Shown piece after piece: positions 43,415-57,394 of a stretch of 64,000 nt of DNA. The notes below the pieces were generated by a model. The model had not been told where the DNA came from. It made no database searches and saw only the letters and a list, made by a program, of their open reading frames with translations. Source of the stretch: an uncultured Eubacteriales bacterium (GTDB lineage Bacteria > Bacillota > Clostridia > Peptostreptococcales > Anaerovoracaceae); assembly GCA_902773835.1 (NCBI GenBank), contig CACYFZ010000004.1, forward strand, positions 7,325 through 71,324, in the 5' to 3' direction. Positions within the stretch are counted from its first letter, which is position 1; every line of letters begins with the position of its first letter. The position numbers were made by a program, and so were the translations under genes.

Positions 43415-43511
43415 TGGCGGGAGTATGTGGGAATCGAACCCACCCGAGAGGCTTCTAACCCCTTACAACGGTTTTGAAGACCGCGAGGCACACCAGCACC
43501 TATCTACCCCC
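43415..43511 (-). tRNA. selC: tRNA-Sec (anticodon UCA), copy 2
   Basis: The minus strand reads GGGGGTAGATAGGTGCTGGTGTGCCTCGCGGTCTTCAAAACCGTTGTAAGGGGTTAGAAGCCTCTCGGGTGGGTTCGATTCCCACATACTCCCGCCA. It differs from copy 1 at 7 of 97 positions. Confidence 0.85.
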
Positions 43512-43598: not shown

Positions 43599-44756
43599 TT
43601 AACTGATAAATCCTTCACCCTTGAGAATATCGCAAGCCTTTTCGAGGTTAGCTTCTGATACTCTTATAATCGGACCCGTACAGCCCATTCCGCTCTCTGC
43701 ATAGATGTTCTGTTTCCAGAGTGCATGTACTCCGTCCTCGAGATCCATTACCTCAATTCCGGCTATAGCCTCGGTAACAATCTCTGAAGGAGGTGCTTTT
43801 ACTTCCTCTGCTTCGGCCGTTGCCGGCTTGGCAGCTGCTTTTCTGGCATCAAGAATGCTCTTTAATCCTGCCTTTGATGCTGCTGCAAATTCCTTTGAAG
43901 CAATCTCGAAGACGTTAGCTCTTACGAGCTGCGCCGCATACTTGATGGCACCTGCGATTACCGGTGCGCCGGAAGCTCTTGAAATAATCATGACAAGTCT
44001 GTCATAACCCTCTCCGATTCCAGGTCCGTATCCGTATCCGCTGGCCTCATAGCTTCCGCCTGTTTGGAATGCGGACATTGTCTTGACAAGAACATTTCCC
44101 GTAAGAGAGTCCGTAACCATGATATCAGGTGTTCCCTGCAGAAGGTCATTACCTCTCATAACGCATCCGCCGTCAGCCCTTGCAGACTCAGCGAACTTGA
44201 TAGGGTAGCCCTTATCAGCGAGCTCTTTGAGAATAGTCTCTGTCTGGCGTGCGCCGTCAACATTGAGTATACCTACGCTTGGTTCCTCAACTCCGCAGGC
44301 CTTGGCAGCGATAATGCCGTAAATGGCATTTTTTACCATTCCTTCGATTCTGTCAGTGCTGGATGTTCCCGTTGTATTAGCGATGAACATTTCCTTTCCG
44401 CGTCCCGGTGTCACAACTCTTCCGACAGTGGATACACCGATAGGGAACGGATAATGCATGGTAACTGCAGCGTCTACTTCTCCGTTTGAGAGAAGTTCTT
44501 CCATCTTTGCATGACCTTCTTCATCATCCTTTACCTTTACGGTAGTCACACCCTCTGCTTCGAGAGTTCCGATGTAATAAACATCAACACCCTCCTTTGC
44601 AGTCATGAGAGCCGCCTGCATGGAGTTTTCTTCTCCATGCTCGGAACCCATGCCGGTGAGTGCGATTTTAGGTCTTTTGCCGTAGCTTCCGCTTTCGATA
44701 CCATTGGCCATTTCAAGGAAGGTCTCAGCGATCATTTTTTGTATATTCTGAGCCAT
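43599..44756 (-). CDS. grdD: Glycine reductase complex protein C, alpha subunit (PlsX-like)
   Basis: 385 aa with PlsX-like sequence. It lies immediately after grdC. Confidence 0.85.
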   Translation of the reverse strand: MAQNIQKMIAETFLEMANGIESGSYGKRPKIALTGMGSEHGEENSMQAALMTAKEGVDVYYIGTLEAEGVTTVKVKDDEEGHAKMEELLSNGEVDAAVTMHYPFPIGVSTVGRVVTPGRGKEMFIANTTGTSSTDRIEGMVKNAIYGIIAAKACGVEEPSVGILNVDGARQTETILKELADKGYPIKFAESARADGGCVMRGNDLLQGTPDIMVTDSLTGNVLVKTMSAFQTGGSYEASGYGYGPGIGEGYDRLVMIISRASGAPVIAGAIKYAAQLVRANVFEIASKEFAAASKAGLKSILDARKAAAKPATAEAEEVKAPPSEIVTEAIAGIEVMDLEDGVHALWKQNIYAESGMGCTGPIIRVSEANLEKACDILKGEGFIS

Positions 44757-44767
44757 TATGCCCTCCT

Positions 44768-46315
44768 TTACTCTGCCATAAGTCCTGCAGCGAAATCTTT
44801 AAGTGCGCTTGCAATCATGCTCTTAACTTCAGACTCGGATACTCCGGATCCGCCGCCTGAGCTCTGGCCTTTGTTAGCCTCGATTACAAATGAAACACCG
44901 TCGAAGAGGTTTGTCATTCTGCCGAGGAAGAGACTTCCCTTACCTATAACCATAGCTCTTGAAATGTCTCCTGCGAGCATCATGTCGCGGCAAGGTCCCA
45001 TGAAAGGAACTCCTGACGGAATGTGACCCTGTGTAGGAGCCCATCCCTTCATGCCGTGTTCAGTGATGAAGCTTGCAAGCTGTGCTTTTTCGAGATCTCC
45101 TCTCTTAACACCGAGAGCAGCAATCATCTTGTAGTTGGATTCAGGTACATCTCCCGCTCCTGCAGGCTTTGTGATATCCGGATTCTGCATCTCAGGAGCA
45201 TACTTGTCGATGTCAGTGATTCTGAGACCTGCCTCATCCAGAGGATCAGTTACCAGTGAGCTGATAACTGCCTGAGGGGAAGAACCTGTTCCTACTTTAT
45301 GTCTTCCTATGATATCGCTTCTGATAATAGGATCTGTGCCGTTGTCTTCACTGATTAGAACGGAGAAACCTGCGAGGCAATCCTCGAGTACAGGCATGCC
45401 TTTTTCTACATGGCTTTTACCGTTCATTCCCAGCTTTGCGGTACAACCGCCGGCCGTAACCACTACGTTTTTGAATGTGCCGGATTTTACGAGAGCAGCA
45501 GCATTCAGAATAGCGTGTGCAGGTCCTGCGCAGAATCCTCTCACGTCGGATCCCGTTGCATTGTTCAGCCCTGCGATTTCAGCAGCAGCCTTAGCGAAGT
45601 TGCCGCCGCCTCTTTGGTTCATGTCACCGCAGGCTTCCTCTGCACAGTCGATTACGTAATCAACTTCATCAGGATTGATGCCTGTAGCCTTTACGAGGTG
45701 CAGAAGCGAAAGAACGCTTGTGGCCTTGCTGGAGATGTTCTCAAGCATTACGTGGGCCGAGAGGTTTACGTCTACATCGTGAGCTCTCTTGACAGCTCCG
45801 ACCAGCTCGTCATTCATATACAGCCCGCATGCGCCGTCGTTCTTTACTGCATCTTCAATCTGCTCTTTAGTGAACTGGTTCTTATCGAGAACTGCAACCT
45901 GCTCGTCGGTAAACATACCTGAAGCAGCAAGCTTAGTCTTAACTCCGGCAGCAAAGCCGGCTTCGAGCTCTACGAGGTCGAATACGTCACAGATCTGCAT
46001 CAGTCCGTAGTACTCATCCTGAGGCATGATCTCTCCGTACTTACCTGTGCGGTCTTTAACCGGAGCAGCCTTGTCGTGCCATGGCATCTCAATGCCCTCG
46101 AGGTCCTTGCTTGTCATGTTACCGATATATACCTGGTTAGGTGCATATGCGAGAACATCTTCATAAGATCTGAGGTGCTTAGGAAGTTCCTTGAGATATT
46201 CTCCGTCAGGATTTACTACTCTCTCGGTTACCTGTGTAGCTCCGTCATGAATAACCATGTCCGGAGTATGTGCAAGCGTATAGCTTGCTCCTTTGATTAC
46301 TGCATAATCGCCCAT
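44768..46315 (-). CDS. grdC: Glycine reductase complex protein C, beta subunit (thiolase/FabH-like)
   Basis: 515 aa. Its length, thiolase-like sequence and position match GrdC. Confidence 0.85.
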   Translation of the reverse strand: MGDYAVIKGASYTLAHTPDMVIHDGATQVTERVVNPDGEYLKELPKHLRSYEDVLAYAPNQVYIGNMTSKDLEGIEMPWHDKAAPVKDRTGKYGEIMPQDEYYGLMQICDVFDLVELEAGFAAGVKTKLAASGMFTDEQVAVLDKNQFTKEQIEDAVKNDGACGLYMNDELVGAVKRAHDVDVNLSAHVMLENISSKATSVLSLLHLVKATGINPDEVDYVIDCAEEACGDMNQRGGGNFAKAAAEIAGLNNATGSDVRGFCAGPAHAILNAAALVKSGTFKNVVVTAGGCTAKLGMNGKSHVEKGMPVLEDCLAGFSVLISEDNGTDPIIRSDIIGRHKVGTGSSPQAVISSLVTDPLDEAGLRITDIDKYAPEMQNPDITKPAGAGDVPESNYKMIAALGVKRGDLEKAQLASFITEHGMKGWAPTQGHIPSGVPFMGPCRDMMLAGDISRAMVIGKGSLFLGRMTNLFDGVSFVIEANKGQSSGGGSGVSESEVKSMIASALKDFAAGLMAE

Positions 46316-46325
46316 AGTAGTCTCC

Positions 46326-46643
46326 TTATACGTACTTCTCTACCATTTCCTTTACTGCATCAGCAGTAGCATCGTCCTTTACGAGCTCTTCTACTTTCTC
46401 ACCGTCCTTGTAGATAGCGATTACAGGAAGACCCATTACCTTCTGACCGATAGCTACTCTTCTGGCCTTTGTTGTGTTAAGCGCCGTGAATTTCAGTTTG
46501 TCACCGTACTGATCTGCAAGTGCGTGTACGTGTGGCATAAGAGCCTGGCAAGGTACGCATCCGTCGCCGTAGAAATCTACTACTACGTATCCTTCTGCGT
46601 TCAATACTTCTTCATCAAATGTTTTCTTATCCAGTTCCAGCAT
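46326..46643 (-). CDS. trxA: Thioredoxin (grd-associated type)
   Basis: 105 aa. The active site is GCVPC rather than WCGPC. Confidence 0.85.
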   Translation of the reverse strand: MLELDKKTFDEEVLNAEGYVVVDFYGDGCVPCQALMPHVHALADQYGDKLKFTALNTTKARRVAIGQKVMGLPVIAIYKDGEKVEELVKDDATADAVKEMVEKYV

Positions 46644-46663
46644 TGTTTTGTCCTCCTTTGAAA

Positions 46664-47617
46664 CTAATACTTATAAGCTGTGCCTTCGAGCTCTTCAATA
46701 TACTTTCCTGCCTGTGTAGCAGCGATAGCACCATCGGCAGCAGCAGTTACTACCTGTCTGAGACTCTTCTTGCGAATATCTCCGGCTGCGAATATGCCTG
46801 GGATATTTGTGTGCATGTCTTCGTCAGTGATGATATATCCTCTTTCCATTTCGAGTTTGCCCTCGAATACATCTGAGAGAGGCTTAAATCCTATAAATAC
46901 AAAGATTCCGAATGTTCCATCTTCCTCGTCTGCAAAAATCTCTCTTGTCTCTCCTGTCTGAGTATCTTTAACGATCATGCTCTCAACGAGTCCGTCACCT
47001 TTGATTTCTTCGATTGTCGTATTCCACATGAAGTCGAGCTTCTCATTGGCAAATGCCTTCTCCTGAATGGATCTGGCCGCTCTGAGCTGATCTCTTCTGT
47101 GGATGAGTGTAACCTGTCTTGCGAACTTAGTCAGATACATAGCTTCCTCTACCGCAGCATCTCCGCCGCCTACTACGTATACCTGGAAATCTTCAAAGAA
47201 TGCCGCATCGCAGGTTGCGCAATATGATACACCCTTACCTGTGAGTTCCTTCTCACCCGGGCATCCGATTTCTGTGTGAGTTGCTCCGGTTGTTACGATA
47301 ACAGCCTTAGCCTGGTACTCACCCTTTGTGCACTTAATCTTCTTGATGTCTCCGTCAAACTCTACGCCGGTTACCGTGTCTTCTACTCTCTCGCAACCGA
47401 ACTTGTCTGCCTGAGCTACCATACGTGCAATCAGGGAAGGACCTGTCTCACCTTCAATGGAGCCGGGATAATTCTCAAGCTCGTCTGTGATTACGATCTG
47501 TCCGCCGTATTTCTGCTTTTCGATAATCAGAGTGTCCATCTTAGCTCTTCCGGCATAGAGACCTGCAGCAAGTCCCGCAGGACCTCCTCCGATAATCACG
47601 ATATCATATGTTTTCAT
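46664..47617 (-). CDS. trxB: Thioredoxin reductase
   Basis: It contains GGGPAG, the CATCD redox centre and GGGDAA. The start is set at the ATG at 47617, after GGAGGTGGG. Confidence 0.85.
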   Translation of the reverse strand: MKTYDIVIIGGGPAGLAAGLYAGRAKMDTLIIEKQKYGGQIVITDELENYPGSIEGETGPSLIARMVAQADKFGCERVEDTVTGVEFDGDIKKIKCTKGEYQAKAVIVTTGATHTEIGCPGEKELTGKGVSYCATCDAAFFEDFQVYVVGGGDAAVEEAMYLTKFARQVTLIHRRDQLRAARSIQEKAFANEKLDFMWNTTIEEIKGDGLVESMIVKDTQTGETREIFADEEDGTFGIFVFIGFKPLSDVFEGKLEMERGYIITDEDMHTNIPGIFAAGDIRKKSLRQVVTAAADGAIAATQAGKYIEELEGTAYKY

Positions 47618-47737
47618 TTGACCCACCTCCATGAATCGAGTTGTTTGATTATTCTTTGGTTTTCATCGGTCAGAGGGACCCGCATTCGACAGGTTATAAA
47701 TGGATGACCTGCCGAATACGACTCCGACCTTTTCAAC

Positions 47738-48208
47738 TTAAGCTTCGGCGACCTGTTCGCGAATAGCATTCATCTCTTCGCAAATGTCGTCTACATCCAG
47801 CACCATTTCCATCATGCTGACCTGTTCATCATATACAGCCTCATCGATTTCAGCTTTGATTTCAGGCTCACATATGTGATAACACGCGAGTTTCAACGAA
47901 ACTCCGGCCAGACACCCTGCAAATGTAGGATCTCCGAGAGCTACTGTTTCAGCTGCGAGGCCTGCTGCCTCTCCTTCAGCTGCTCCAACCAGTACTACCA
48001 GATTATCTGCTCCGTACTGATCGTAGAACTCTTTAACTCTCTTCTGATTCTCCAAATCCATGGCTCCGGCGGCCGTTCAGACGAAGCACTCAGTCGAGTA
48101 ATATACGACCTCGGCTCCTGCTGACTTGGCACAGTCTGCTATCGCTGGACCCGGAATACCGTCACGGTCTCCGATTACGATAGCTTTCTTTCCATTCAGA
48201 ATAGCCAT
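47738..48208 (-). CDS. grdA: Glycine reductase selenoprotein A, with an in-frame UGA at 48077-48079
   Basis: Translation from the ATG at 48208 gives [58 protein letters not shown]... The track shows only the part after the UGA (47738..48061). Confidence 0.9.
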
Positions 48209-48264
48209 CTTGTTCTCCTTTCCTTTGTATTTTGTTTTTTTGTAAATGAAGATTATTTATCGAT

Positions 48265-48302
48265 GGACATAGGCCGAGAAATAGGGGCTCGCGGCCTATG
48301 CC
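48265..48302 (-). other. GC-rich intercistronic hairpin between DUF3841-A and grdA
   Basis: CATAGGCCGAG pairs with CTCG(CG)GCCTATG, giving an 8+3 bp stem with a 2 nt bulge. No U-tract follows on the minus strand. Confidence 0.55.
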
Positions 48303-48419
48303 ACCGTCTCTTAAGAAAGAAAGTGTTGCTACTTTCAATCTTAATTGACTGTAATTAATTGTCGCTCTTTGCTGGGAAACAAAAAGAGAATGGCTAATTG
48401 AGAGCATGTAAATAACCGT

Positions 48420-49001
48420 TTACTGCTCTAAAAGCGATTCTTTTTTAATGCACCAAAGACCCGCCTGGACGGCTCTGACTCCGTCATACTCCCCTCTTCT
48501 GATGGCATCATCATGACGAAGTAGTCTCTTCCAGCTGTCTGTGATTGTCCTTTTTATATCCGGATAGAATGGCTTCAAAATTGCTTCAGAGCTGTCTTTA
48601 ATTCCTCTTCTCTCCAGTTCTTTCTCGAAAGATTCTTCATCAGCTTCATTCTCCCCGATATAAGAGAGTCTTAGCACCTTGTACCAGTCATAAGCATCGA
48701 AGAAAACCGCCTCATCCTTCGGCACTTTCAGAACCATAATTCTGCTTCCGGATGAAGTATCTGCCATTTCTGCATCAGCAAAAGCCCAGTACGGATAATT
48801 GCTGCTGTCCGCACGAGGAACGATTTGCTCTGCCATTCTTATATATTCTTCATACGCAGACAGAAATATCTGCGCACTTTCCTCGTATTTCTTTTGTACG
48901 TACTCTCTCTTTGAATATGCGATGCCATCCCTTTCGACGGCCTCCCACACAGGCTCGGCCTGAGGTGAGTAAAGAATTACTTTATTATCTTTTCTATCCA
49001 T
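48420..49001 (-). CDS. DUF3841-family protein (paralog A)
   Basis: 193 aa with a GGGAGG RBS upstream. I recognise it as DUF3841-like, but a profile search is needed to confirm this. It shares YP.W...SYI.ENE.D...FYP.IK..I..SW.RL with the neighbouring gene. Confidence 0.6.
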   Translation of the reverse strand: MDRKDNKVILYSPQAEPVWEAVERDGIAYSKREYVQKKYEESAQIFLSAYEEYIRMAEQIVPRADSSNYPYWAFADAEMADTSSGSRIMVLKVPKDEAVFFDAYDWYKVLRLSYIGENEADEESFEKELERRGIKDSSEAILKPFYPDIKRTITDSWKRLLRHDDAIRRGEYDGVRAVQAGLWCIKKESLLEQ

Positions 49002-49534
49002 TCTTTCCTTACCTCCCAGACAATACCGTATGCGGTATCACTTCCGAGCCTCACGTTCTCATCAAACAATCTGTCCCAGCTGGCGATTATCTCAGCCTTT
49101 ATCTCAGGGTAAAAATCAGTCATGACAGCGCGAGCATCGGATATGCCGAGGCCTTTCATGTAATCAGTGTGCCTTTCCCGGTCGTCTTCGTTTTCGGGTA
49201 TATATGAATAATTTGTTATACATGTCCACTTGGCGGTATCAAGAAGAGCTATATCATCGCTTTCAATCTCAAGTTCCAGCACGACATAGCCATCTTCCGG
49301 TATCATGGTCGCTTCTCTTTCAAGCGATACCCAGACGGGATATCTGACATCATCAGGTCTTTTATCCGCAGTCGGAGAATGATCCGCGAGCCACTCATAG
49401 ATGCTGAGCATGATGTCTGCGGTATCTTCGAGTTCTCTTCGAATGAAGCCCTCGTCAGCGATGAACCTTCCGTTCCTGCTCAGCTGATCTAAGACTGCAA
49501 TATTCTGTTTGGTCCAGACTCTGACTTTCGACAT
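48977..49534 (-). CDS. DUF3841-family protein (paralog B)
   Basis: About 185 aa from the ATG at 49534 (MSKVRVWTKQNIAVL...). The track ORF begins at 49603. The 3' end overlaps the start of paralog A by 25 nt. Confidence 0.6.
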   Translation of the reverse strand: MSKVRVWTKQNIAVLDQLSRNGRFIADEGFIRRELEDTADIMLSIYEWLADHSPTADKRPDDVRYPVWVSLEREATMIPEDGYVVLELEIESDDIALLDTAKWTCITNYSYIPENEDDRERHTDYMKGLGISDARAVMTDFYPEIKAEIIASWDRLFDENVRLGSDTAYGIVWEVRKEWIEKIIK

Positions 49535-49571
49535 AAGCCCCTGAATCAATTGATACCTTAGTAGTGGAAAC

Positions 49572-49604
49572 GGTGCCGGCCTTGCCGGTAGCAAGGCCGA
49601 CACC
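49572..49604 (-). other. 14 bp GC-rich hairpin between grdB and DUF3841-B
   Basis: On the minus strand, GGTGTCGGCCTTGC-TACCG-GCAAGGCCGGCACC with one G-U pair. It is followed by GTTTCC, which is a weak U-tract. Confidence 0.55.
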
Positions 49605-49652
49605 CATCTTAAGTGATGTTATTCGTTTCCGTCTTCAGAACTTGTTAATTAA

Positions 49653-50966
49653 CTAGTCCTCAAAGATAGTCTGATCGCTTACCTCTGTCTCAAGAGCCTT
49701 GAGTGCCTTGAGGACGAGTTTGCGACGAAGTGCCTTCTCCTCATCCTTGTCGAGAGCAGGGTTGCCCAGAGGATGCGGGATAGCGATAGCAGGAACGATT
49801 CTGTTTGCTCCTACCGTCATGGAAATCGGAGTTACCGTACAAACGTGAACTACAGGGAGTCCTGCTCTCTCAAGTTCTTTTACCATCGTTGCGCCGCAAC
49901 GAGTACAGGTTCCTCAGGTAGAGGTCAGGATAACTGCATCCACACCGTCGGCCTTCAGTTTCTGTCCGATCTCCGCACCGTACTTCTTTGCTGAGGCTAC
50001 AGCAGTACCGTTTCCTACGGTTGCATAGAATTTCTCATGGAGTTTTCCGATAACGCCTTCTTTTTCTAGATCACGAAGAACGTCTACAGGAAGTACTCTG
50101 TCTGCATCCTGGTTGGCATATACAGGATCGTATCCGCCGTGAGCCGTCTCAAATGTGTTCTCATCGAGATCCGTAACTCCTGCGAGACTGTACTCACCGT
50201 ACTTAGAAGCACTTGAACTCTCAATGTGATCCGGGTTGCCCTTCACTACGATACCACCTGATGTAACCAATGCGATTGTGGCATGTGCCATGTCCTTAAC
50301 CGCAGGGTTAGGTGCAACTCTGTCGAAGTCAGGCATAGGATACTCGGTTGTGAACGGCTTATCTGCCAGCTTAGCCAGAAGCATATTTACGGCTCGCTTA
50401 GAGCCTCTTTCTTCTTCAAAGAAGTTGACTCTGACACCGTTATTCATATATCCTTCCTGGCTCGATGCGCCTATTTTTTCGCCCTTTACATACTTAAGAG
50501 CAAATGCTGTCATCTTCTTGACTGCATCTCTCATACCTGCAGCGCTGTCCTTTGTCTCGAGGATATATACCTTATCCTTGTACATGTCTGCACCGGGGTT
50601 CTCAACGTACATACCTGTCATAGCCTTGATGCCGAGTTCTTCCGCAACTGCGGATGCGATAGTTCCGCAAGCTACTCCGTAACGTCCTGCATTGAAAGCA
50701 GGGCCTGCTATGAAGAGATCAGGAGCAAGGTCTTTAACCCATCCGAGGATCTCAGCTTTAGCCTTGTCAATATTTTCGTTGAAATAGGAGTCTCCGCATA
50801 CGATAGTTGCAATTATCTCAGCTTCGTCTCCGAAACCTGCTGCGAATGCCGTGCCGGGTCCGATTACTTCTCCTTTATACAATTCTGCAGGGATGTCGGC
50901 TTTTTCCTCTCCGCCGATACCGGCAAAGAACTGATTTATGTAATGAACTACTTTGTATTTAGCCAT
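49653..50966 (-). CDS. grdB: Glycine reductase selenoprotein B, with an in-frame UGA at 49914-49916
   Basis: Track ORFs 49914..50999 and 49653..49886 join in frame across a TGA. The junction reads ...DAVILTST-U-GTCTRCGATMVKELE..., which is the UxxCxxC motif of GrdB. The start is set at the ATG at 50966, after AGGAGGAAAG. Confidence 0.9.
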
Positions 50967-50988
50967 TTTTCTTTCCTCCTTTCCCGGC

Positions 50989-52269
50989 TTATCTCGCACT
51001 CAGCTTTCCGAATCCCATCTCGTTGGTAGCACCGGTAATTACCTGGAGCTCTACTTCGAGTGAGCCGTCTTCTCTGAGCGTCTTATCACTTGCACCTGCT
51101 ATGAGATTGACATAATCGAGCATTCCGATTACCTTGTCAAGCTTTGGCAGAATGATTACTTCGTTGGCATTTCCGCCGGTTACTACGGCATCTGCTGCAG
51201 GGTCTGCGTCTGCAAGGGACTGTGACTTTCCGTCTCTTCCCGCATACTCATCCGTAACGATTACCGTCTTAACGCCTTCAGCCTCGATCTTCTTGCAGTT
51301 CATAATCAGGTCAGTATCAGGGTTTCCGAATCCTTCCTGAGTTACGATTACTCCGTCAAGATCAAGCATGCGGCAGAGCTTAGCTGTCATATTCGATGAT
51401 CTTTCTTTGTCTGCCAGATATACGTTTTCGTTTGTGATAATCTGGCAAACGAAGTTAATTGTCTTTCCGTGCTGTGCGAAGAGGTCCTCGATTACAGGGT
51501 TGTTCTGATGAACGTAAGTCGGGTTCTTATCGCAAGCCGATACGCAGTTGCCGGATACGATAGCTCCGTCCATAGCCTCTGTAGGACTGATAATTGTAGG
51601 GATAATCTTCTTGGCATCTACACCGTATACATATGTATCGTGAAGAAGACCCTGTGTCTGCAGCATGGAGACATATCCCACTCTCGGAAGATCCGGATAT
51701 TTCTCAATGCCTTCCTTAATTCCGCATGTTTCAAAAACATCAGTCTCATCAGGCTTGATGTCTCTGGCGAGTTCTCCGATCTTGGCAGCAACTCTGAACC
51801 CTGCCATTCTTACAGCCTTCTCATAGTCATGCTGCTTAAGATCTTCAACAGGTTCACAAACCATGCAAAGGTTAATTGTCTTTGAGAACGGTGTATAATC
51901 TGCTCCCGGTCCGCTCATATCGATAATTCCTTCCTGGAATCCGACAATCTTTCCGGCAGTAACTACAGCCATTCCCTTAAGGGCAAGTGTCTTACCGGAA
52001 CCAACGGTGTCAACCTTTGAAATCATTCCAGGGAATATACCTCCCTTTCCTTCAACCTTGACACGCGGTTCAATTACATCCTTTACCGGTGTGATACGTA
52101 CTGATTCGCCCGGTTTTGCGATTTCAAATACTACATCCTTGAGTTTTTCGTCCTCAAGTACCACCGGTTTGAGATCTTCCGGATTAACGAAGAGTACTCC
52201 GTTCTCGATTTTGGAGTTTTCCGCGAAACGGATATCGGTGATATTGATTTTTCCGATTTCCAATCTCAT
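50989..52269 (-). CDS. grdE: Glycine reductase proprotein GrdE
   Basis: 426 aa. The Asn241-Cys242 pair (SGNCVSA) sits at the position where GrdE proproteins self-cleave to form the pyruvoyl group. Confidence 0.85.
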   Translation of the reverse strand: MRLEIGKINITDIRFAENSKIENGVLFVNPEDLKPVVLEDEKLKDVVFEIAKPGESVRITPVKDVIEPRVKVEGKGGIFPGMISKVDTVGSGKTLALKGMAVVTAGKIVGFQEGIIDMSGPGADYTPFSKTINLCMVCEPVEDLKQHDYEKAVRMAGFRVAAKIGELARDIKPDETDVFETCGIKEGIEKYPDLPRVGYVSMLQTQGLLHDTYVYGVDAKKIIPTIISPTEAMDGAIVSGNCVSACDKNPTYVHQNNPVIEDLFAQHGKTINFVCQIITNENVYLADKERSSNMTAKLCRMLDLDGVIVTQEGFGNPDTDLIMNCKKIEAEGVKTVIVTDEYAGRDGKSQSLADADPAADAVVTGGNANEVIILPKLDKVIGMLDYVNLIAGASDKTLREDGSLEVELQVITGATNEMGFGKLSAR

Positions 52270-52376
52270 TTCAAATCGCCTCCTTTTTGGTATAATGATT
52301 GAGCTAACTTTTTTGTTGGTCGGAGCCGATTACGCATAGGGGCTGCGTAATCGTATCCGTTGTATAAGAAAAGAGG

Positions 52377-52769
52377 TCACTCGTCTGCTGCTTCGGCGGC
52401 ACTCGCCAAAAGACTCAGGTCCACCACCTGGTAGTCAAGAAGCAAATCATGACTTGTGTCCTCTTTCTTATGCGTAAATTTATTGTAGGCCGTAATAGCC
52501 TTGTTGATTAATTCTCTCGATTCATCCGAGCTTACGGCATCCCAAGTATAAGTTCCGGCTTTTTTCTTCAGGAGCAGGGATTTATATGGCGTTTCATTTG
52601 GCTTAACACTGCCGTAAAGCGGGTGATTAAGAAGAACGCAGCCTGAATCAATCATGTCTGCGGCAATCGAAAGAATTGATTCGGCAGGCACATCATAAAA
52701 ACTAACCCTATGGCTGTCTCCGAATTTTTCATTCACTTTTGGGTTGTTTGTCAGAATCGTGTAATCCAT
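52377..52769 (-). CDS. grdX: GrdX
   Basis: About 130 aa from the ATG at 52769 (MDYTILTNNPKV...). It is the first gene of the grd operon. Confidence 0.75.
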   Translation of the reverse strand: MDYTILTNNPKVNEKFGDSHRVSFYDVPAESILSIAADMIDSGCVLLNHPLYGSVKPNETPYKSLLLKKKAGTYTWDAVSSDESRELINKAITAYNKFTHKKEDTSHDLLLDYQVVDLSLLASAAEAADE

Positions 52770-52789
52770 CTGCCCGCCTCTCAATAGAT

Positions 52790-53012
52790 AAAAAAGAAGA
52801 ATGCCGCATTAACACGTACAGCATTCTTCTGTCTCATCATCCTTAAAATCTGATTCAGAAATAGGTGCGCCTATCGGTCCTTTTGCTTGAAAGTTTCACA
52901 CCAAATAATGCCAATCATCTGATGTTTGCCTCTTCAGCGGTCGCTGTAAAACGACTCTCTCCCGAAAGGAATAATCCCTCTGGATTCAATTATTGCCCCT
53001 ATTTCTTGATAA
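52790..53012 (-). promoter_or_regulatory. Glycine riboswitch: a single aptamer, a 5' accessory hairpin and a terminator
   Basis: The minus strand reads CGGGAGAGAGUCG..CGACCGCUGAAGAGGCAAAC....GUGAAACUUUCAAGCAAAAGGACCG. This matches the glycine aptamer core (GGAGAG...CCGAAGGAGCAA...CUCUCAGGCAAAAGGAC). The terminator AGAAGAATGC...GCATTCTTCT plus TTTTTT lies at 52790-52830. Confidence 0.75.
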
Positions 53013-53114: not shown

Positions 53115-54254
53115 CTACGCTTTTTCCTCTGTTTTATTCTTATACATCATATCATCCGCTGTATCTATTAGCTTCTCCGCTGAGGCGAGTGGTGAAATAC
53201 ACTTGGCATATCCCATAGACATTTCAATTATGTAGTCCAAATCCGCCTTTTTGGATTCTTCATCTATGTATTTCCTGATATCTGCAATTATTCTTTCCGG
53301 GTTCTTCGCATTAGGTCCCGATACTATAACGCAAAACTCATCTCCGCCCCATCTGGCTACGAAATTATGACTGTTTTCACGATACTTGTTCAAAGCCAGC
53401 CCTACGAGTCTGAGAGCCTTGTCTCCTTCTACATGACCATATGTGTCATTAATCAGCTTAAAGTTATCTATATCTCCAATGAAGAATAAGAGCGGTTCCT
53501 TTTCATTGGCTGTCATAATATGTTCTGCAAGATAACTGTCAACTGCCTTTCTGTTGCTCAGCTGCGTTACATTATCGGTAAAAATCTGCGATTGCAGCAA
53601 GTTGGTGTATATCAAAACCGTACCGAAGAGAAGTGCAAGTTCCATAACAGGCAGGTTTTCAGCAACTATGTCAAGAAGGCCGGCAGCAACCGGAAAAACC
53701 AAAAACGTCGCCTCTATATGATAACTCCTCTTTTGATTCTTTGAGCTTAGTTTTCTGGACTGCAATGTAATATGTGCCGTAGCGAAAACCAGATATGAAA
53801 CTGCCAAAATAAACATGGTCGGATAAAGAGGACCATGGATGTATTCATTTTTTTCATTGTAATAAAAAACCCACTTTGTAATCGGTGTCGTCAGAATAAA
53901 CCCCAGCGCGATTACGAGCGGCACCATAGATACTATTCTGAACGTCCTCATCTTTACAAAGTCGGTAGACAGTTTGGCCTCAACATACTTAAACCAATAA
54001 TATGATGCCATACATATGGATATGAGATTTATAACGGAGAAGAATGATCCGTCCCACTTAAGAAATCCGAAGTTTATCCACACCCACACCATATTGGACA
54101 AAACAAAACCCAAGTACCACAGAAGATAATTTCTGAAAGCCAGTACTTCCTGCTCTGAACCTAAGTTGATATTAATCTGAAACAATATTGTGGTAGCAAT
54201 TAATGCACACACCACCGTAACGAGAAAATATGCAAAAGTATATGTGAATACCAT
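53115..54254 (-). CDS. Membrane-anchored diguanylate cyclase (GGDEF)
   Basis: 379 aa with about 7 N-terminal TM helices, then a GGDEF domain (RWGGDEFCVIV). Confidence 0.8.
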   Translation of the reverse strand: MVFTYTFAYFLVTVVCALIATTILFQININLGSEQEVLAFRNYLLWYLGFVLSNMVWVWINFGFLKWDGSFFSVINLISICMASYYWFKYVEAKLSTDFVKMRTFRIVSMVPLVIALGFILTTPITKWVFYYNEKNEYIHGPLYPTMFILAVSYLVFATAHITLQSRKLSSKNQKRSYHIEATFLVFPVAAGLLDIVAENLPVMELALLFGTVLIYTNLLQSQIFTDNVTQLSNRKAVDSYLAEHIMTANEKEPLLFFIGDIDNFKLINDTYGHVEGDKALRLVGLALNKYRENSHNFVARWGGDEFCVIVSGPNAKNPERIIADIRKYIDEESKKADLDYIIEMSMGYAKCISPLASAEKLIDTADDMMYKNKTEEKA

Positions 54255-54304
54255 AAGCAGATTGTAACATAAATGAATTTATTACTAATGTAATATTACA
54301 AATC

Positions 54305-54341
54305 TTTTAATAAAAGGTGGCCGGGATTCTACCCGGCCACC
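54305..54341 (-). terminator. Intrinsic terminator after ygfK
   Basis: GGTGGCCGGG-loop-CCCGGCCACC forms a 10 bp GC stem followed by TTTTATTAAAAG on the minus strand. Confidence 0.8.
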
Positions 54342-54406
54342 CTCGTATGGATTATCAGCAAGTGATAAGTGTAAAGAGCGTTTTGTGAGCGAAAACGCTT
54401 ATATTC

Positions 54407-57394
54407 TTATACTCCCGTCATGTAGCTGTAATCATCCAGCACAGCTTTGGTCAGCTTGCAAATATCCTCAGGAAGCTTTGATGCAGCTTCATCGAGTGTG
54501 CACTCGAACTCGGCTTTGTCGTAGCGAACTTTGAGTTTTCCGCCGTCGAGTGGAAGGAATCCTTCGTTCTCGCTGTCCCTGAAGTCTTTTTCGGTAGCAA
54601 AGAGTGTCCATTTATCCTTGTACGGGCGTCCGTTGTATGGGCAGAATACCGCGCAGTTGCCGCACTCGTTGCACATGATGTCGACATGTACGATCTGAGT
54701 CTTTTCCATACCCGGTACCTCAATCGAGATATTTGCTCTGTTCGGGCAAACCTCTACGCAGGCCTCGCAGACCTTCTGGCAACCGAGACATCTGACTCCG
54801 TCGTCCTCCTCGATTTCACCGCAGAGATATCCGTGGCGATTCTTATAAGCCTTTGCGTCTGTGATCGCTGTCAGGCTGTCATCGTAGAATGTGGCTCCTG
54901 CAATTGCGATTGCAACTCTTGCAGCATCTGCAATGCCCTTTACTACAGTAGCAGGGCCTGCCTTACAGTCGCCGGCAGCATAGATGTGATCTACGCTGGT
55001 CTTAAGATCTGCTCCGAGCACCGGACGGCCTCTGTCGTCCATCTTGGCTCCGCAAGCATTGTAGAGAGATGCATCGATTCTCTCACCTACAGCGGCGATT
55101 ACTGTATCTGCAGGAACGCTGACCTTCTCTCCTGTGTCAACCGGGCTTCTTCTTCCGGACTCATCGGGATCACCCAACTTCATAACTGAGCACTCAAGCA
55201 CTCCGTCCTTAACACCGATAGGTGCGAGGAGCTCCATGAACTCCACTCCGTCCTCGACAGCCATTACCAGCTCTTCCTCATCAGCCGGCATGTATCTCTT
55301 AGTACGTCTGTAAACGAGTCTTACATTCTCAACTCCCGCAACTCTCTTAGCTGCACGAGCTACGTCCATAGCTGTGTTACCGCCGCCGATTACGACGATG
55401 TTCTTTCCGATATTGAGAGCTGAAGGATTGTTCTTAGCCTCATAGAGGAACTCAAGAGCATCCATTTCCTCTCCGTACTCGAGATTGGCTCTGCCCTTCT
55501 CCCATGCACCGATTGCGATGACTACATCGTCATATCCCTCAGCGAGGAGATCCGCAGGGTTCTTAACCTCTACTCCGTATTTGAACTCTGCACCGTAAGC
55601 GCTGCAAAGTGCCACATCCTTTTCGATGGTCTCATCGCTGATTCTGAATGCAGGGATTACCTGGCGTACGACTCCGCCTGCAACGTCTGCCTTCTCAAAT
55701 ACAGTTACCTTGGCACCTGCTCTTGAAAGGAAGCTTGCGCTTGCAAGTCCCGCAGGACCCGCACCGATAACGGCGACCTTCTTATCGCATGCACCCTCAG
55801 TCTTGAGTCCGCCTACAAGCTTGTCGAATGCCGATGTAGCAGCTTCGAGCTTGACCTTTCTGATCTTTACAGACTCCTCATAGTGGTTTCTCATGCACTT
55901 ATCTGCGCAGGTATGCGGACAGATAGTTCCTGTGATGAACGGAAGAGCGTTCTTCTTCAGTATGATTGCCAGGGCTTCCTCAGCCTTTCCATGTGACATG
56001 GCCGCCAGGTATTCAGGGATATCCTGGTTGATTGGGCAGCCGTCCGAGCATGGTGAATCGAAGCAGTCGATCTTAGGCAGCTCTCTGGCCATCTTTCTGT
56101 CAGGAAGCGGCTTAACCGGCTTTTTGTAATATCCGTCTGTCAGGGCATCTGCAGCGAGTTTCTCGACCTTTGCAGGATCAACACCTTCGAAGGCCTTGTA
56201 TTCACTGTCTTCGAGAATCTCAGCCAGCTGTGCCATTCTCTCATAGCCACCCGGTTTAAGCAGCGTAGTAGCCATTGTGATAGGCCAGATACCTGCATCG
56301 AAGAGCGCCTTAATATTGTATGCATCGGCACCGCCGGAGTATGAGATTCTGAGTTTTCCGTCGAATTCCTTGCTGATTCTTCTGGCGAGCTCAGTTGTCA
56401 GAATGTAGAGAGATCTTCCCGACATGTACATCTCTTCACTCGGAAGCTCTCCTGCAGCTACGTCTACAGGGAATGTATTGGTCAGCTTAACACCGAACTC
56501 CAATCCCTTCTCAGCGCAAAGCTTGATGAGGCGGTTGAACATAGGAACCGCATCCTCCCATTGGAGGTCCTCTAAGAAGTGATGGTCGTCAAATACGATA
56601 TAGTCATATCCACATGAATCGAGTCTTTCTCTGGCTGTCTCATATCCGAGCAGAGTCGGGTTGCACTTGATATAAGTGTTAAGGCCCTTCTCAGTAATGA
56701 GATATGTGGCAATTCTCTCGATTTCATCAGGCGGGCATCCGTGAAGAGTAGACTCTGTTATGGAAGCCGAAACCTGTGCAGGAATGCTGTCTACGAATGC
56801 TTCATCGATCTTGCTGAAAAGTCCGATGTTCTTCTTAAGCCATTCCTTGGCTTCCTTAAATACAGGTCTGTCGGATGCATCCTTCATGCCTTCGATATAG
56901 TTATCTACCTTTTCGGACTTGATGCCCTCAAGATCGTAACCTACGGACATATTGAATACGAAGCTGTCAGGATCTCCGAGTCCGAGCTCTTTAGCGAGGA
57001 CTTTACAGATAACCCATGCCTTTACGTATTCTTCATAAGCCTGGCCTACTTCGAGCTCTGTGGACCACTCACAGTTATAGCACTCATCGTGAGCCGTGAT
57101 GCATGGCTTTGCAACGCATGCAGCCAGTTCAGCTCCGTCCATAATCTGTACGGTCTTAAGTTCGAAGAATCTCGCACCTGTTACATAGGATGCGATGATG
57201 TTCTGCGCCAGCTGTGTATTAGGGCCGGCTGCAGGTCCGAACGGTGACTCAAGCTTTTCTTTGAAAATAGGCAATTCTTTACCGCCCAGCTTAGGCATTC
57301 TCTTCTCTCCGAAGATAGCTCCGTCTTTCTTGTACTCTTCGAGCACCCATCTCATCAGATGATCGAAGCTCATAGGAGTCATAATATCGCTCAT
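54407..57394 (-). CDS. ygfK: YgfK-family oxidoreductase (DPD-like TIM barrel, Fe-S clusters and a GltD-like flavoprotein)
   Basis: 995 aa. The N-terminus (MSDIMTPMSFDHLMRWVLEEYKK...FGPAAGPNTQLAQNIIASYVTGARFFELKTVQ) parallels E. coli YgfK as I recall it. Confidence 0.85.
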   Translation of the reverse strand: MSDIMTPMSFDHLMRWVLEEYKKDGAIFGEKRMPKLGGKELPIFKEKLESPFGPAAGPNTQLAQNIIASYVTGARFFELKTVQIMDGAELAACVAKPCITAHDECYNCEWSTELEVGQAYEEYVKAWVICKVLAKELGLGDPDSFVFNMSVGYDLEGIKSEKVDNYIEGMKDASDRPVFKEAKEWLKKNIGLFSKIDEAFVDSIPAQVSASITESTLHGCPPDEIERIATYLITEKGLNTYIKCNPTLLGYETARERLDSCGYDYIVFDDHHFLEDLQWEDAVPMFNRLIKLCAEKGLEFGVKLTNTFPVDVAAGELPSEEMYMSGRSLYILTTELARRISKEFDGKLRISYSGGADAYNIKALFDAGIWPITMATTLLKPGGYERMAQLAEILEDSEYKAFEGVDPAKVEKLAADALTDGYYKKPVKPLPDRKMARELPKIDCFDSPCSDGCPINQDIPEYLAAMSHGKAEEALAIILKKNALPFITGTICPHTCADKCMRNHYEESVKIRKVKLEAATSAFDKLVGGLKTEGACDKKVAVIGAGPAGLASASFLSRAGAKVTVFEKADVAGGVVRQVIPAFRISDETIEKDVALCSAYGAEFKYGVEVKNPADLLAEGYDDVVIAIGAWEKGRANLEYGEEMDALEFLYEAKNNPSALNIGKNIVVIGGGNTAMDVARAAKRVAGVENVRLVYRRTKRYMPADEEELVMAVEDGVEFMELLAPIGVKDGVLECSVMKLGDPDESGRRSPVDTGEKVSVPADTVIAAVGERIDASLYNACGAKMDDRGRPVLGADLKTSVDHIYAAGDCKAGPATVVKGIADAARVAIAIAGATFYDDSLTAITDAKAYKNRHGYLCGEIEEDDGVRCLGCQKVCEACVEVCPNRANISIEVPGMEKTQIVHVDIMCNECGNCAVFCPYNGRPYKDKWTLFATEKDFRDSENEGFLPLDGGKLKVRYDKAEFECTLDEAASKLPEDICKLTKAVLDDYSYMTGV

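Follow-up and report, generated by a model that had tools for sequence, protein, structure and literature searches.

The DNA considered here is a 64-kb window (the whole stretch that was analysed) from an uncultured Eubacteriales bacterium, contig CACYFZ010000004.1 of assembly GCA_902773835.1; coordinates are positions within this window and strands are given relative to it. A glycine reductase operon on its minus strand holds two genes of the DUF3841 family, named here DUFa (upstream) and DUFb (downstream), between the genes of the two selenoproteins GrdB and GrdA, and the pair now stands within an operon headed by a glycine riboswitch (Table 1). An earlier note made from the letters of this DNA described the two genes as a discrete cassette, bounded by GC-rich hairpins, that had been inserted between grdB and grdA and was kept there by a function with the glycine reductase complex. 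Comparison with related loci points to a different history, in which the pair, probably an optional accessory of betaine- and sarcosine-type reductase modules, was stranded in the operon by a deletion.

The assignment of the two genes leaves little ambiguity. Pfam places both in PF12952 (DUF3841) with scores of 178.6 and 186.9 bits, against a gathering threshold of 27 bits, and the matches run end to end, covering profile positions 1-176 and 1-177 of 178; homologues are named by NCBI "DUF3841 domain-containing protein". DUFa and DUFb share 30% identity over 166 amino acids (aa) with E=5e-21 and are therefore paralogues. The mechanical open reading frame (ORF) of DUFa, 48977-49603, would encode 208 aa from a GTG at 49603; since the PF12952 domain begins at residue 28 of this long ORF and homologues measure 184-189 aa, the true start is most likely the ATG at 49534, giving a protein of 185 aa. 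The two ORFs overlap by 25 nucleotides (nt; 48977-49001), and a GGGAGG motif lies 10 nt 5' of the ATG of DUFb, with a second motif, AGGA, nearer to it. On these points the earlier note was accurate: the family, the paralogy, the location between grdB and grdA, the overlap and the GGGAGG ribosome-binding site of the second gene were all recovered, and its remark that DUF3841 had no published function or link agrees with the absence of any literature found on DUF3841, PF12952 or IPR024211. The paired a/b organization of the family and its link to Grd modules appear to be undescribed. Both proteins are acidic (isoelectric points 4.5 and 4.9), Trp, Tyr and Phe together make up 10-12% of their residues, conserved Trp and Tyr are abundant in both, and neither has a hydrophobic segment. 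No homology to Grd proteins was detected in either of them, Pfam giving DUF3841 alone and NCBIfam giving nothing.

The origin of the arrangement was revealed by relatives that carry a longer form of the locus (L001-L012 and L016-L028), as the majority of the Anaerovoracaceae relatives do. In these, grdB, DUFa and DUFb are followed on the opposite strand by a convergent third DUF3841 gene (DUFc) and a TetR gene, which overlap by 4 nt, and then by grdI, grdH and a BCCT transporter gene ahead of grdA; the second B-type protein of these relatives is named betaine reductase GrdH by NCBIfam. A second grdE/B pair, a BCCT gene and a TetR gene of the type that accompanies DUFc are all missing from the 64-kb window. 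When the window is aligned at the nucleotide level with L007, the long-form relative nearest to it, the match breaks off where DUFb ends and resumes at grdA, with a block of 5.75 kb passed over. The 211-nt spacer between DUFb and grdA starts with a remnant of DUFc on the opposite strand, whose translation, IVALCWETKREWLIESM up to the stop codon, is to be compared with the DUFc C-termini of relatives, which end in VVGLCWELKREWLI or IVGLCWELRSEWLLEAK; the remainder of the spacer aligns to the intergenic region that separates BCCT from grdA in relatives. Because the DUFc remnant survives, the spacer aligns to the BCCT-grdA region and the alignment to L007 skips 5.75 kb, the arrangement in the window is a deletion derivative and not the product of the insertion of a two-gene cassette. 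What the window genome has lost runs from a point within DUFc through to where BCCT ends, and DUFa and DUFb are thereby left between grdB and the grdA leader. The location that had been taken for an insertion is that of the betaine-reductase block of relatives, which the window has lost. The short form is also present in L090, a contig 99% identical to the window, and L013 and L015 have a short form produced by a separate deletion, with a 3' fragment of BCCT left behind.

In each of the 20 Anaerovoracaceae loci DUFa and DUFb keep this place between grdB and grdA, and it can be proposed that in this ruminant-gut Anaerovoracaceae/Mogibacterium-like lineage the pair belongs to an accessory block located between the two selenoprotein genes. 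A further variant of gene order is seen in a Mogibacterium metagenome-assembled genome (MAG), in which a grdA fragment, not grdB, lies directly 5' of DUFa (L026, 2-845). A separate observation concerns DUFa together with the grdB-DUFa spacer (window 48977-49652 versus L007 6308-6983), which resemble L007 far more closely than their surroundings do: synonymous divergence (dS) is 0.10 and spacer identity 95.8%, against dS of 0.9-1.4 for the flanking genes grdE, grdB, DUFb and trxB; this stretch looks like a recent recombination tract.

The conservation of the pair was examined by scanning a profile of both paralogues over one genome per GTDB species, a scan that yields loci, not whole genomes. 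In every one of the 80 species-level loci obtained (80/80) a DUFa-type gene precedes a DUFb-type gene on the same strand, typically with an overlap of about 20 nt. Twenty of these loci come from ruminant-gut MAGs of Anaerovoracaceae/Mogibacterium, with 61-71% identity to DUFb, and the other 60, with 42-54% identity, are distributed among Lachnospiraceae, Oscillospiraceae, Tissierellia, Clostridium, Syntrophomonas and Brachyspira. Searched exhaustively with a profile, the DUF3841 family comprises about 1000 clusters at 50% identity. There is in addition a natural fusion protein of 376 aa (P0241) that joins DUFa and DUFb in the same order. From the strict co-occurrence, the translational coupling and this fusion we infer that DUFa and DUFb form a heterodimer, that is, that the two genes would encode the halves of a conserved, soluble and acidic complex of DUF3841 paralogues.

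Both genes also carry the mark of selection. The ratio of non-synonymous to synonymous substitution (omega) is 0.06-0.13 for DUFa and 0.07-0.16 for DUFb, in comparisons that include L013 versus L015, both of the short form. These codon comparisons indicate that the two genes are under purifying selection and were kept after the loss of the betaine block. Decay of the pair following that loss was considered as an alternative and is ruled out by the full length of the genes together with these omega values. At the same time, evolution of the DUF proteins is 4-5 times faster than that of GrdB and GrdE, with non-synonymous divergence (dN) of 0.25-0.30 versus 0.05-0.07.

The hairpins that flank the pair are real structures, as had been claimed, and are far more stable than expected by chance. 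On the grdB side the arms (49572-49585 and 49591-49604) are 14 nt long and 93% complementary, with an RNA folding free energy (dG) of -30.3 kcal/mol and a z score of -5.7; on the grdA side (arms 48268-48279 and 48289-48300) the extended stem has a dG of -27.6 and a z score of -4.6, and none of the shuffled sequences folded as stably as either hairpin. Neither was called by a terminator scan, neither has a U-tract (the tails are GUUUCC and CCAUCGAUAAAU), and neither matched any Rfam family. The further idea that they delimit a discrete cassette did not survive comparison with relatives. The grdA-side hairpin belongs to the leader of grdA: in nine loci its loop, GCCCCUA, is invariant and compensatory changes affect 6 of the 11 stem pairs, and it is found whether DUFb or BCCT precedes grdA. 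It lies about 60-110 nt 5' of grdA in the window, L004, L011, L012, L013, L015, L018, L021 and L023, and possibly represents a leader element, not described before, that controls grdA. On the other side, GC-rich hairpins of unrelated sequence are common 3' of grdB, being present in most relatives and missing from two of them. The grdB-side hairpin of L007 differs from that of the window by two A-to-G changes, with pairing kept only as U-G on the sense RNA, which points to a role at the RNA level. Terminators or cassette ends are excluded by the lack of U-tracts and by conservation in other gene orders, and the two hairpins are read as parts of the operon mRNA that serve in its processing, stabilisation or attenuation, not as borders of a cassette.

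Outside the Anaerovoracaceae, five of the 60 loci carry Grd-type genes, in diverse arrangements. In an Oscillospiraceae MAG (L064) the pair follows a TetR gene that is divergent from a grdI-grdH unit, with BCCT beyond it; in Oribacterium (L077) a grdX gene and a sarcosine-type grdG/grdF pair are separated from the DUF3841 pair by a LysR gene; in two Tissierella species (L051, L081) the neighbours are a PrdA-PrdB-like fused selenoprotein, a LysR gene and a gene with a B3_4 domain; and in a Clostridia MAG (L082) the order is grdC-grdD-DUFa-DUFb. The plasmid database PLSDB gave a concordant picture: DUF3841 occurs in 4 of 72,556 records, and all four are among the only six that have a GrdB-family gene. 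The annotation of one of them, the Enterococcus gilvus megaplasmid pCR1A, reads grdC-grdD-grdI-grdH-BCCT-GntR-DUF3841-DUF3841, its DUF3841 proteins being only 33% identical to DUFb.

The Tissierella selenoprotein deserves separate mention. It is encoded at 7427-9481 of L051 and at 12175-14187 of L081, consists of about 590 aa, a TGA codon and then 70 aa, and falls below the equivalog cut-offs for D-proline reductase; its cluster includes genes for an EamA transporter, a ferredoxin-like protein, the LysR and B3_4-domain proteins and one or two DUF3841 pairs. This Prd-like protein may be a reductase for an unknown substrate.

The reverse test, starting from metagenomic grdH loci, found DUF3841 in 12 of 80, or in 11 of the 37 whose flanks reach 3 kb or more on both sides, and after dereplication at 97% in 6 of 15 informative clusters. 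Its position varies: in some loci it separates grdI from the divergent TetR gene, in others it stands on the far side of TetR or follows BCCT. Across these loci (L100-L179) the module met most often has grdI-grdH-BCCT behind a divergent TetR gene, and in one abundant human-gut type the module is preceded by grdX-TetR-grdE-grdB. The chance rate within 20 kb of sequence, for a gene carried in one or two copies by a minority of genomes, was put well below 1%, an author's estimate and not a measured value. Because the frequency in grdH loci far exceeds this estimated rate, the association of DUF3841 with grdH modules is regarded, on these gene neighbourhoods, as real but partial, centred on betaine- and sarcosine-type modules and their regulator genes. 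The counts suggest that about a third of betaine-reductase modules carry a DUF3841 pair, usually by the regulator. Published descriptions of grdHI clusters list the reductase, trxAB, opuD/BCCT, selA and tetR/lysR/gntR, and no DUF3841-type gene (PMC6716910, PMC8547467). The range of grdH has been reported as Firmicutes plus Brachyspira (PMC6964529), and a grd cluster occurs in some Brachyspira (PMC2897892); the parallel with the taxonomic range of the DUF3841 pair is suggestive only.

Altogether, recurrence of Grd linkage, on which the earlier note had staked its proposal, is what was found, as DUF3841 adjoins Grd-family genes in a number of lineages that are not related to one another, and in various gene orders. 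The more specific tie to glycine reductase and GrdA fared differently: linkage to selenoprotein reductases recurs, but it involves mainly GrdH/I, GrdF/G and Prd-like modules and their regulators.

Several observations weigh against a working link between the pair and these modules, or against the proposed heterodimer. No grd, BCCT or GrdR-like gene lies within 10 kb in 55 of the 60 loci outside the Anaerovoracaceae. Neighbours differ widely from one of these loci to the next (123 and 124 Pfam families among 112 first and 102 second neighbours, respectively, none in more than five), and clustering of the same first and second neighbours by all-against-all BLAST gave no recurrent partner. Three further sampled contexts, namely FtsEX/PcsB, a pair formed by a glutathione-peroxidase-family protein (GSHPx) and a flavodoxin, and two-component systems, have no grd genes. 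Conversely, 68 of the 80 metagenomic grdH loci show no DUF3841 within the available sequence, two of the six PLSDB records with a GrdB-family gene lack it, and the P. acidaminophilum replicon with grdF has none. Moreover, since the pair outlived two independent losses of the betaine block under selection, its function cannot strictly depend on GrdHI. With regard to the heterodimer, the P0241 fusion modelled from a single sequence reached a predicted local distance difference test score (pLDDT) of 35.5 and is unusable as a model of the complex.

Structure prediction and domain fusions provide some indications on possible biochemistry. The AlphaFold2 model of DUFb is of good quality (pLDDT 91.9, predicted template modelling score 0.84), and its comparison with the PDB using Foldseek gave nothing significant (E>=0.97, probability <=0.1, template modelling (TM) score <=0.34). 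The weak PDB list consists mostly of proteins with the ADP-ribosyltransferase (ART) fold, including DarT (7yk3, 7omv, 7omy), BC2332 (2aua), TreTu, TccC3, PARP10 and Tpt1 (1wfx), the best of them at E=1.1-9, probability <=0.08 and TM <=0.32. Against BFVD there was one significant match, an unnamed viral protein of 142 aa (E=6.7e-5), and weak ones to seven proteins of Bacillus phage G (Gp53, Gp610, Gp141, Gp233, Gp336, Gp568 and Gp532), none of which is informative; a phage PARP-domain protein also appeared in that database. Searches of PDB sequences with the single protein and with an 81-sequence profile returned only unrelated proteins (best E 0.44-0.95), and a relaxed Pfam scan of 81 family members gave DUF3841 alone. 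Residues conserved across the family are Q14, Y50, W72, W106, G133, Y146, P147, S156 and W157, with E188 conserved in the a and b subtypes only; no H-Y-E or R-S-E triad was recognised among them. Compared with DarT, BC2332 and the PARP catalytic domain, DUF3841 is thus similar in size and alpha/beta composition, and this fold is the commonest type among the weak matches, whereas a significant match, a sequence-profile link and a recognised catalytic triad are lacking; the resemblance is a lead only.

Two fusions, both rare, bear on the same question: in P0323 a LysR-type helix-turn-helix domain is joined to a DUFc-like DUF3841 that replaces the usual effector-binding domain, and in P0244 a GNAT acetyltransferase is joined to DUF3841. 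Considering these LysR and GNAT fusions, the coupling of TetR with DUFc and the acidic, aromatic-rich composition, a role as small-ligand-binding accessory or sensor would be the most economical guess, an enzymatic role being about equally possible. It can be speculated that these proteins bind a small cationic ligand, for example a methylated amine, and thereby modulate regulation or enzyme activity.

Taken together, we lean towards the explanation that DUFa and DUFb form a heterodimer acting as an optional accessory of betaine/sarcosine-type modules, and that a deletion stranded the two genes in this operon. The pair would serve reductase modules for N-alkylated amino acids (GrdHI for betaine, GrdFG for sarcosine, and Prd-like), usually standing beside the TetR, GntR or LysR regulator of the module, and would be neither a subunit nor a maturation factor of glycine reductase; the working relationship with the module is what we infer from gene neighbourhoods. 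The main competing account, which we hold to be rather unlikely, gives the pair a general cellular function unrelated to Grd, its adjacency being a case of hitch-hiking and its presence here that of a bystander spared by the deletion. The many loci remote from grd genes, the diversity of contexts without a conserved neighbour family and the persistence of the pair after the loss of grdHI all favour this account, but it does not accommodate easily the presence of DUF3841 in roughly 30-40% of informative grdH loci against the author-estimated rate of well under 1%, nor the at least six gene orders in different families that adjoin Grd-family genes and the 4/4 overlap in PLSDB. The proposal from which this analysis started, a dedicated cassette inserted in the glycine reductase operon and acting with GrdA, GrdB or GrdE in assembly, selenocysteine or thioester chemistry, or protection, is decidedly improbable. 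The pair does share the strand of the two selenoprotein genes that enclose it, keeps that position in 20/20 Anaerovoracaceae loci, remains under purifying selection although the window and L013/L015 have lost the betaine block, and directly follows grdC-grdD in L082. However, the great majority of the sampled grd operons lack the pair, including many grdX-grdE-grdB clusters (e.g., in L102-L116), its linkage elsewhere is to grdHI, grdFG or prd-like modules and regulators, the hairpins are not cassette borders, and the faster evolution of the DUF proteins relative to GrdB and GrdE also speaks against it. A core role as assembly, selenocysteine or thioester factor of the complex can be set aside, because most pairs have no grd gene nearby and most grdH loci have no DUF3841.

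Two further possibilities concern the nature of the proteins. A divergent enzyme of the ART fold that modifies a protein or nucleic acid, for instance as an on/off switch of the reductase in the way DraT acts on nitrogenase, seems very improbable: the weak Foldseek matches are dominated by this fold and the phage PARP-domain protein in BFVD goes in the same direction, but no PDB match had E<0.9, probability >0.1 or TM >0.34, profile searches gave no ART family, no triad was recognised, and no macrodomain or other reversal enzyme was seen in the neighbourhood. The earlier note had itself named a mobile or defence-type module as an identity that would speak against its proposal; that the operon acquired the pair as a module of this kind, whether mobile, toxin-antitoxin or anti-phage, is hardly credible. 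Two small overlapping genes in variable contexts would fit such a module, as would the Mob_Pre and integrase genes found a few kb away in L098; on the other hand, PADLOC gave no match, the best PHROG match had E 0.24, none of 50,697 phage records contained the family, and the four plasmid records (of 72,556) are all non-mobilizable replicons of 0.9-2.6 Mb. The two genes are besides mutual paralogues, and their position in the operon is stable over saturated synonymous divergence.

Returning to the accessory pair, a bolder version, to which we give only a small chance, would make DUF3841a/b a regulatory heterodimer of selenoprotein amino-acid reductases, acting either as a methylated-amine sensor for TetR, GntR or LysR or as an ART-derived post-translational switch. 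Bacteria form trimethylamine in the gut by three routes, of which betaine reductase is one, and this enzyme also feeds methylamines to methanogens in the rumen and in sediments. If the regulatory version were true, the pair would represent an unrecognised control point of the bacterial formation of trimethylamine from betaine. The orphan family DUF3841 would gain an experimental entry point tied to a pathway of ecological and medical relevance. The window offers in addition a clean example of how a deletion can strand accessory genes inside a core operon, where they resemble an insertion.

The features of the operon and its surroundings are collected in Table 1. Directly upstream of the riboswitch and grdX lie genes for a GGDEF-domain protein and a 995-aa Fe-S flavoprotein (53115-57394, minus strand), and the same neighbours are found in L090.

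Table 1. Features of the glycine reductase operon and of the DUF3841 region in the window
Feature	Position	Strand	Details
Whole operon	43599-52784	-	order grdX, grdE, grdB, DUFa, DUFb, grdA, trxB, trxA, grdC, grdD; same order in near-identical contig L090
Glycine riboswitch, head of operon	52865-52974	-	5' of grdX; Rfam RF00504, 66.6 bits, E=2e-12
grdX	52377-52784	-	NF038093
grdE	50989-52269	-	
grdB, glycine reductase selenoprotein B	49653-50999	-	in-frame TGA; PF07355; both halves together best versus TIGR01917; selenocysteine insertion sequence match SECIS_4 at 49876-49913
grdB-side GC-rich RNA hairpin	49572-49604	-	15 pairs; in the 118-nt grdB-DUFa spacer; without U-tract
DUFa, upstream DUF3841 paralogue	48977-49534	-	PF12952 E=3.5e-55
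DUFb, downstream DUF3841 paralogue	48420-49001	-	193 aa; PF12952 E=1.3e-52
DUFc remnant, third convergent DUF3841 gene	48358-48411	+	last 17 codons and stop; blastx E=1.4e-4
AT-rich imperfect inverted repeat	48303-48352	-	matches start of BCCT-grdA intergenic region of relatives; pairwise alignment to L004
grdA-leader stem-loop	48261-48306	-	conserved loop
grdA, selenoprotein A	47738-48208	-	in-frame TGA; PF04723 and NF040748 on both halves
trxB	46664-47632	-	
trxA	46326-46643	-	
grdC	44768-46315	-	
grdD	43599-44756	-	
tRNA-Sec gene	43419-43511	-	directly 3' of grdD, where the selenoprotein operon ends; Rfam

In comparison with the canonical grd operon of Acetoanaerobium (Clostridium) sticklandii and Brachyspira pilosicoli, ordered grdX-trxB-trxA-grdE-grdA-grdB-grdC-grdD (PMC2897892), the window has the same core genes, plus the glycine riboswitch, the SECIS element and the tRNA-Sec gene. 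It differs in its order, in which grdE-grdB is separated from grdA-trxB-trxA-grdC-grdD and the gap between grdB and grdA is the accessory site. The DUF3841 proteins recall GrdX (NF038093) in being small, soluble and biochemically uncharacterised proteins encoded beside grd genes; yet GrdX accompanies most of the grdE-grdB operons sampled, whereas DUF3841 is optional and mostly found elsewhere, and the two have no sequence relationship. The closest parallel is the betaine module, composed of grdI-grdH, BCCT/OpuD and a TetR, LysR or GntR regulator (PMC6716910, PMC8547467), which adjoins the pair in relatives of the window, in L064, in Enterococcus megaplasmids and in metagenomic loci, whereas the window itself has lost the module and retains only the pair.

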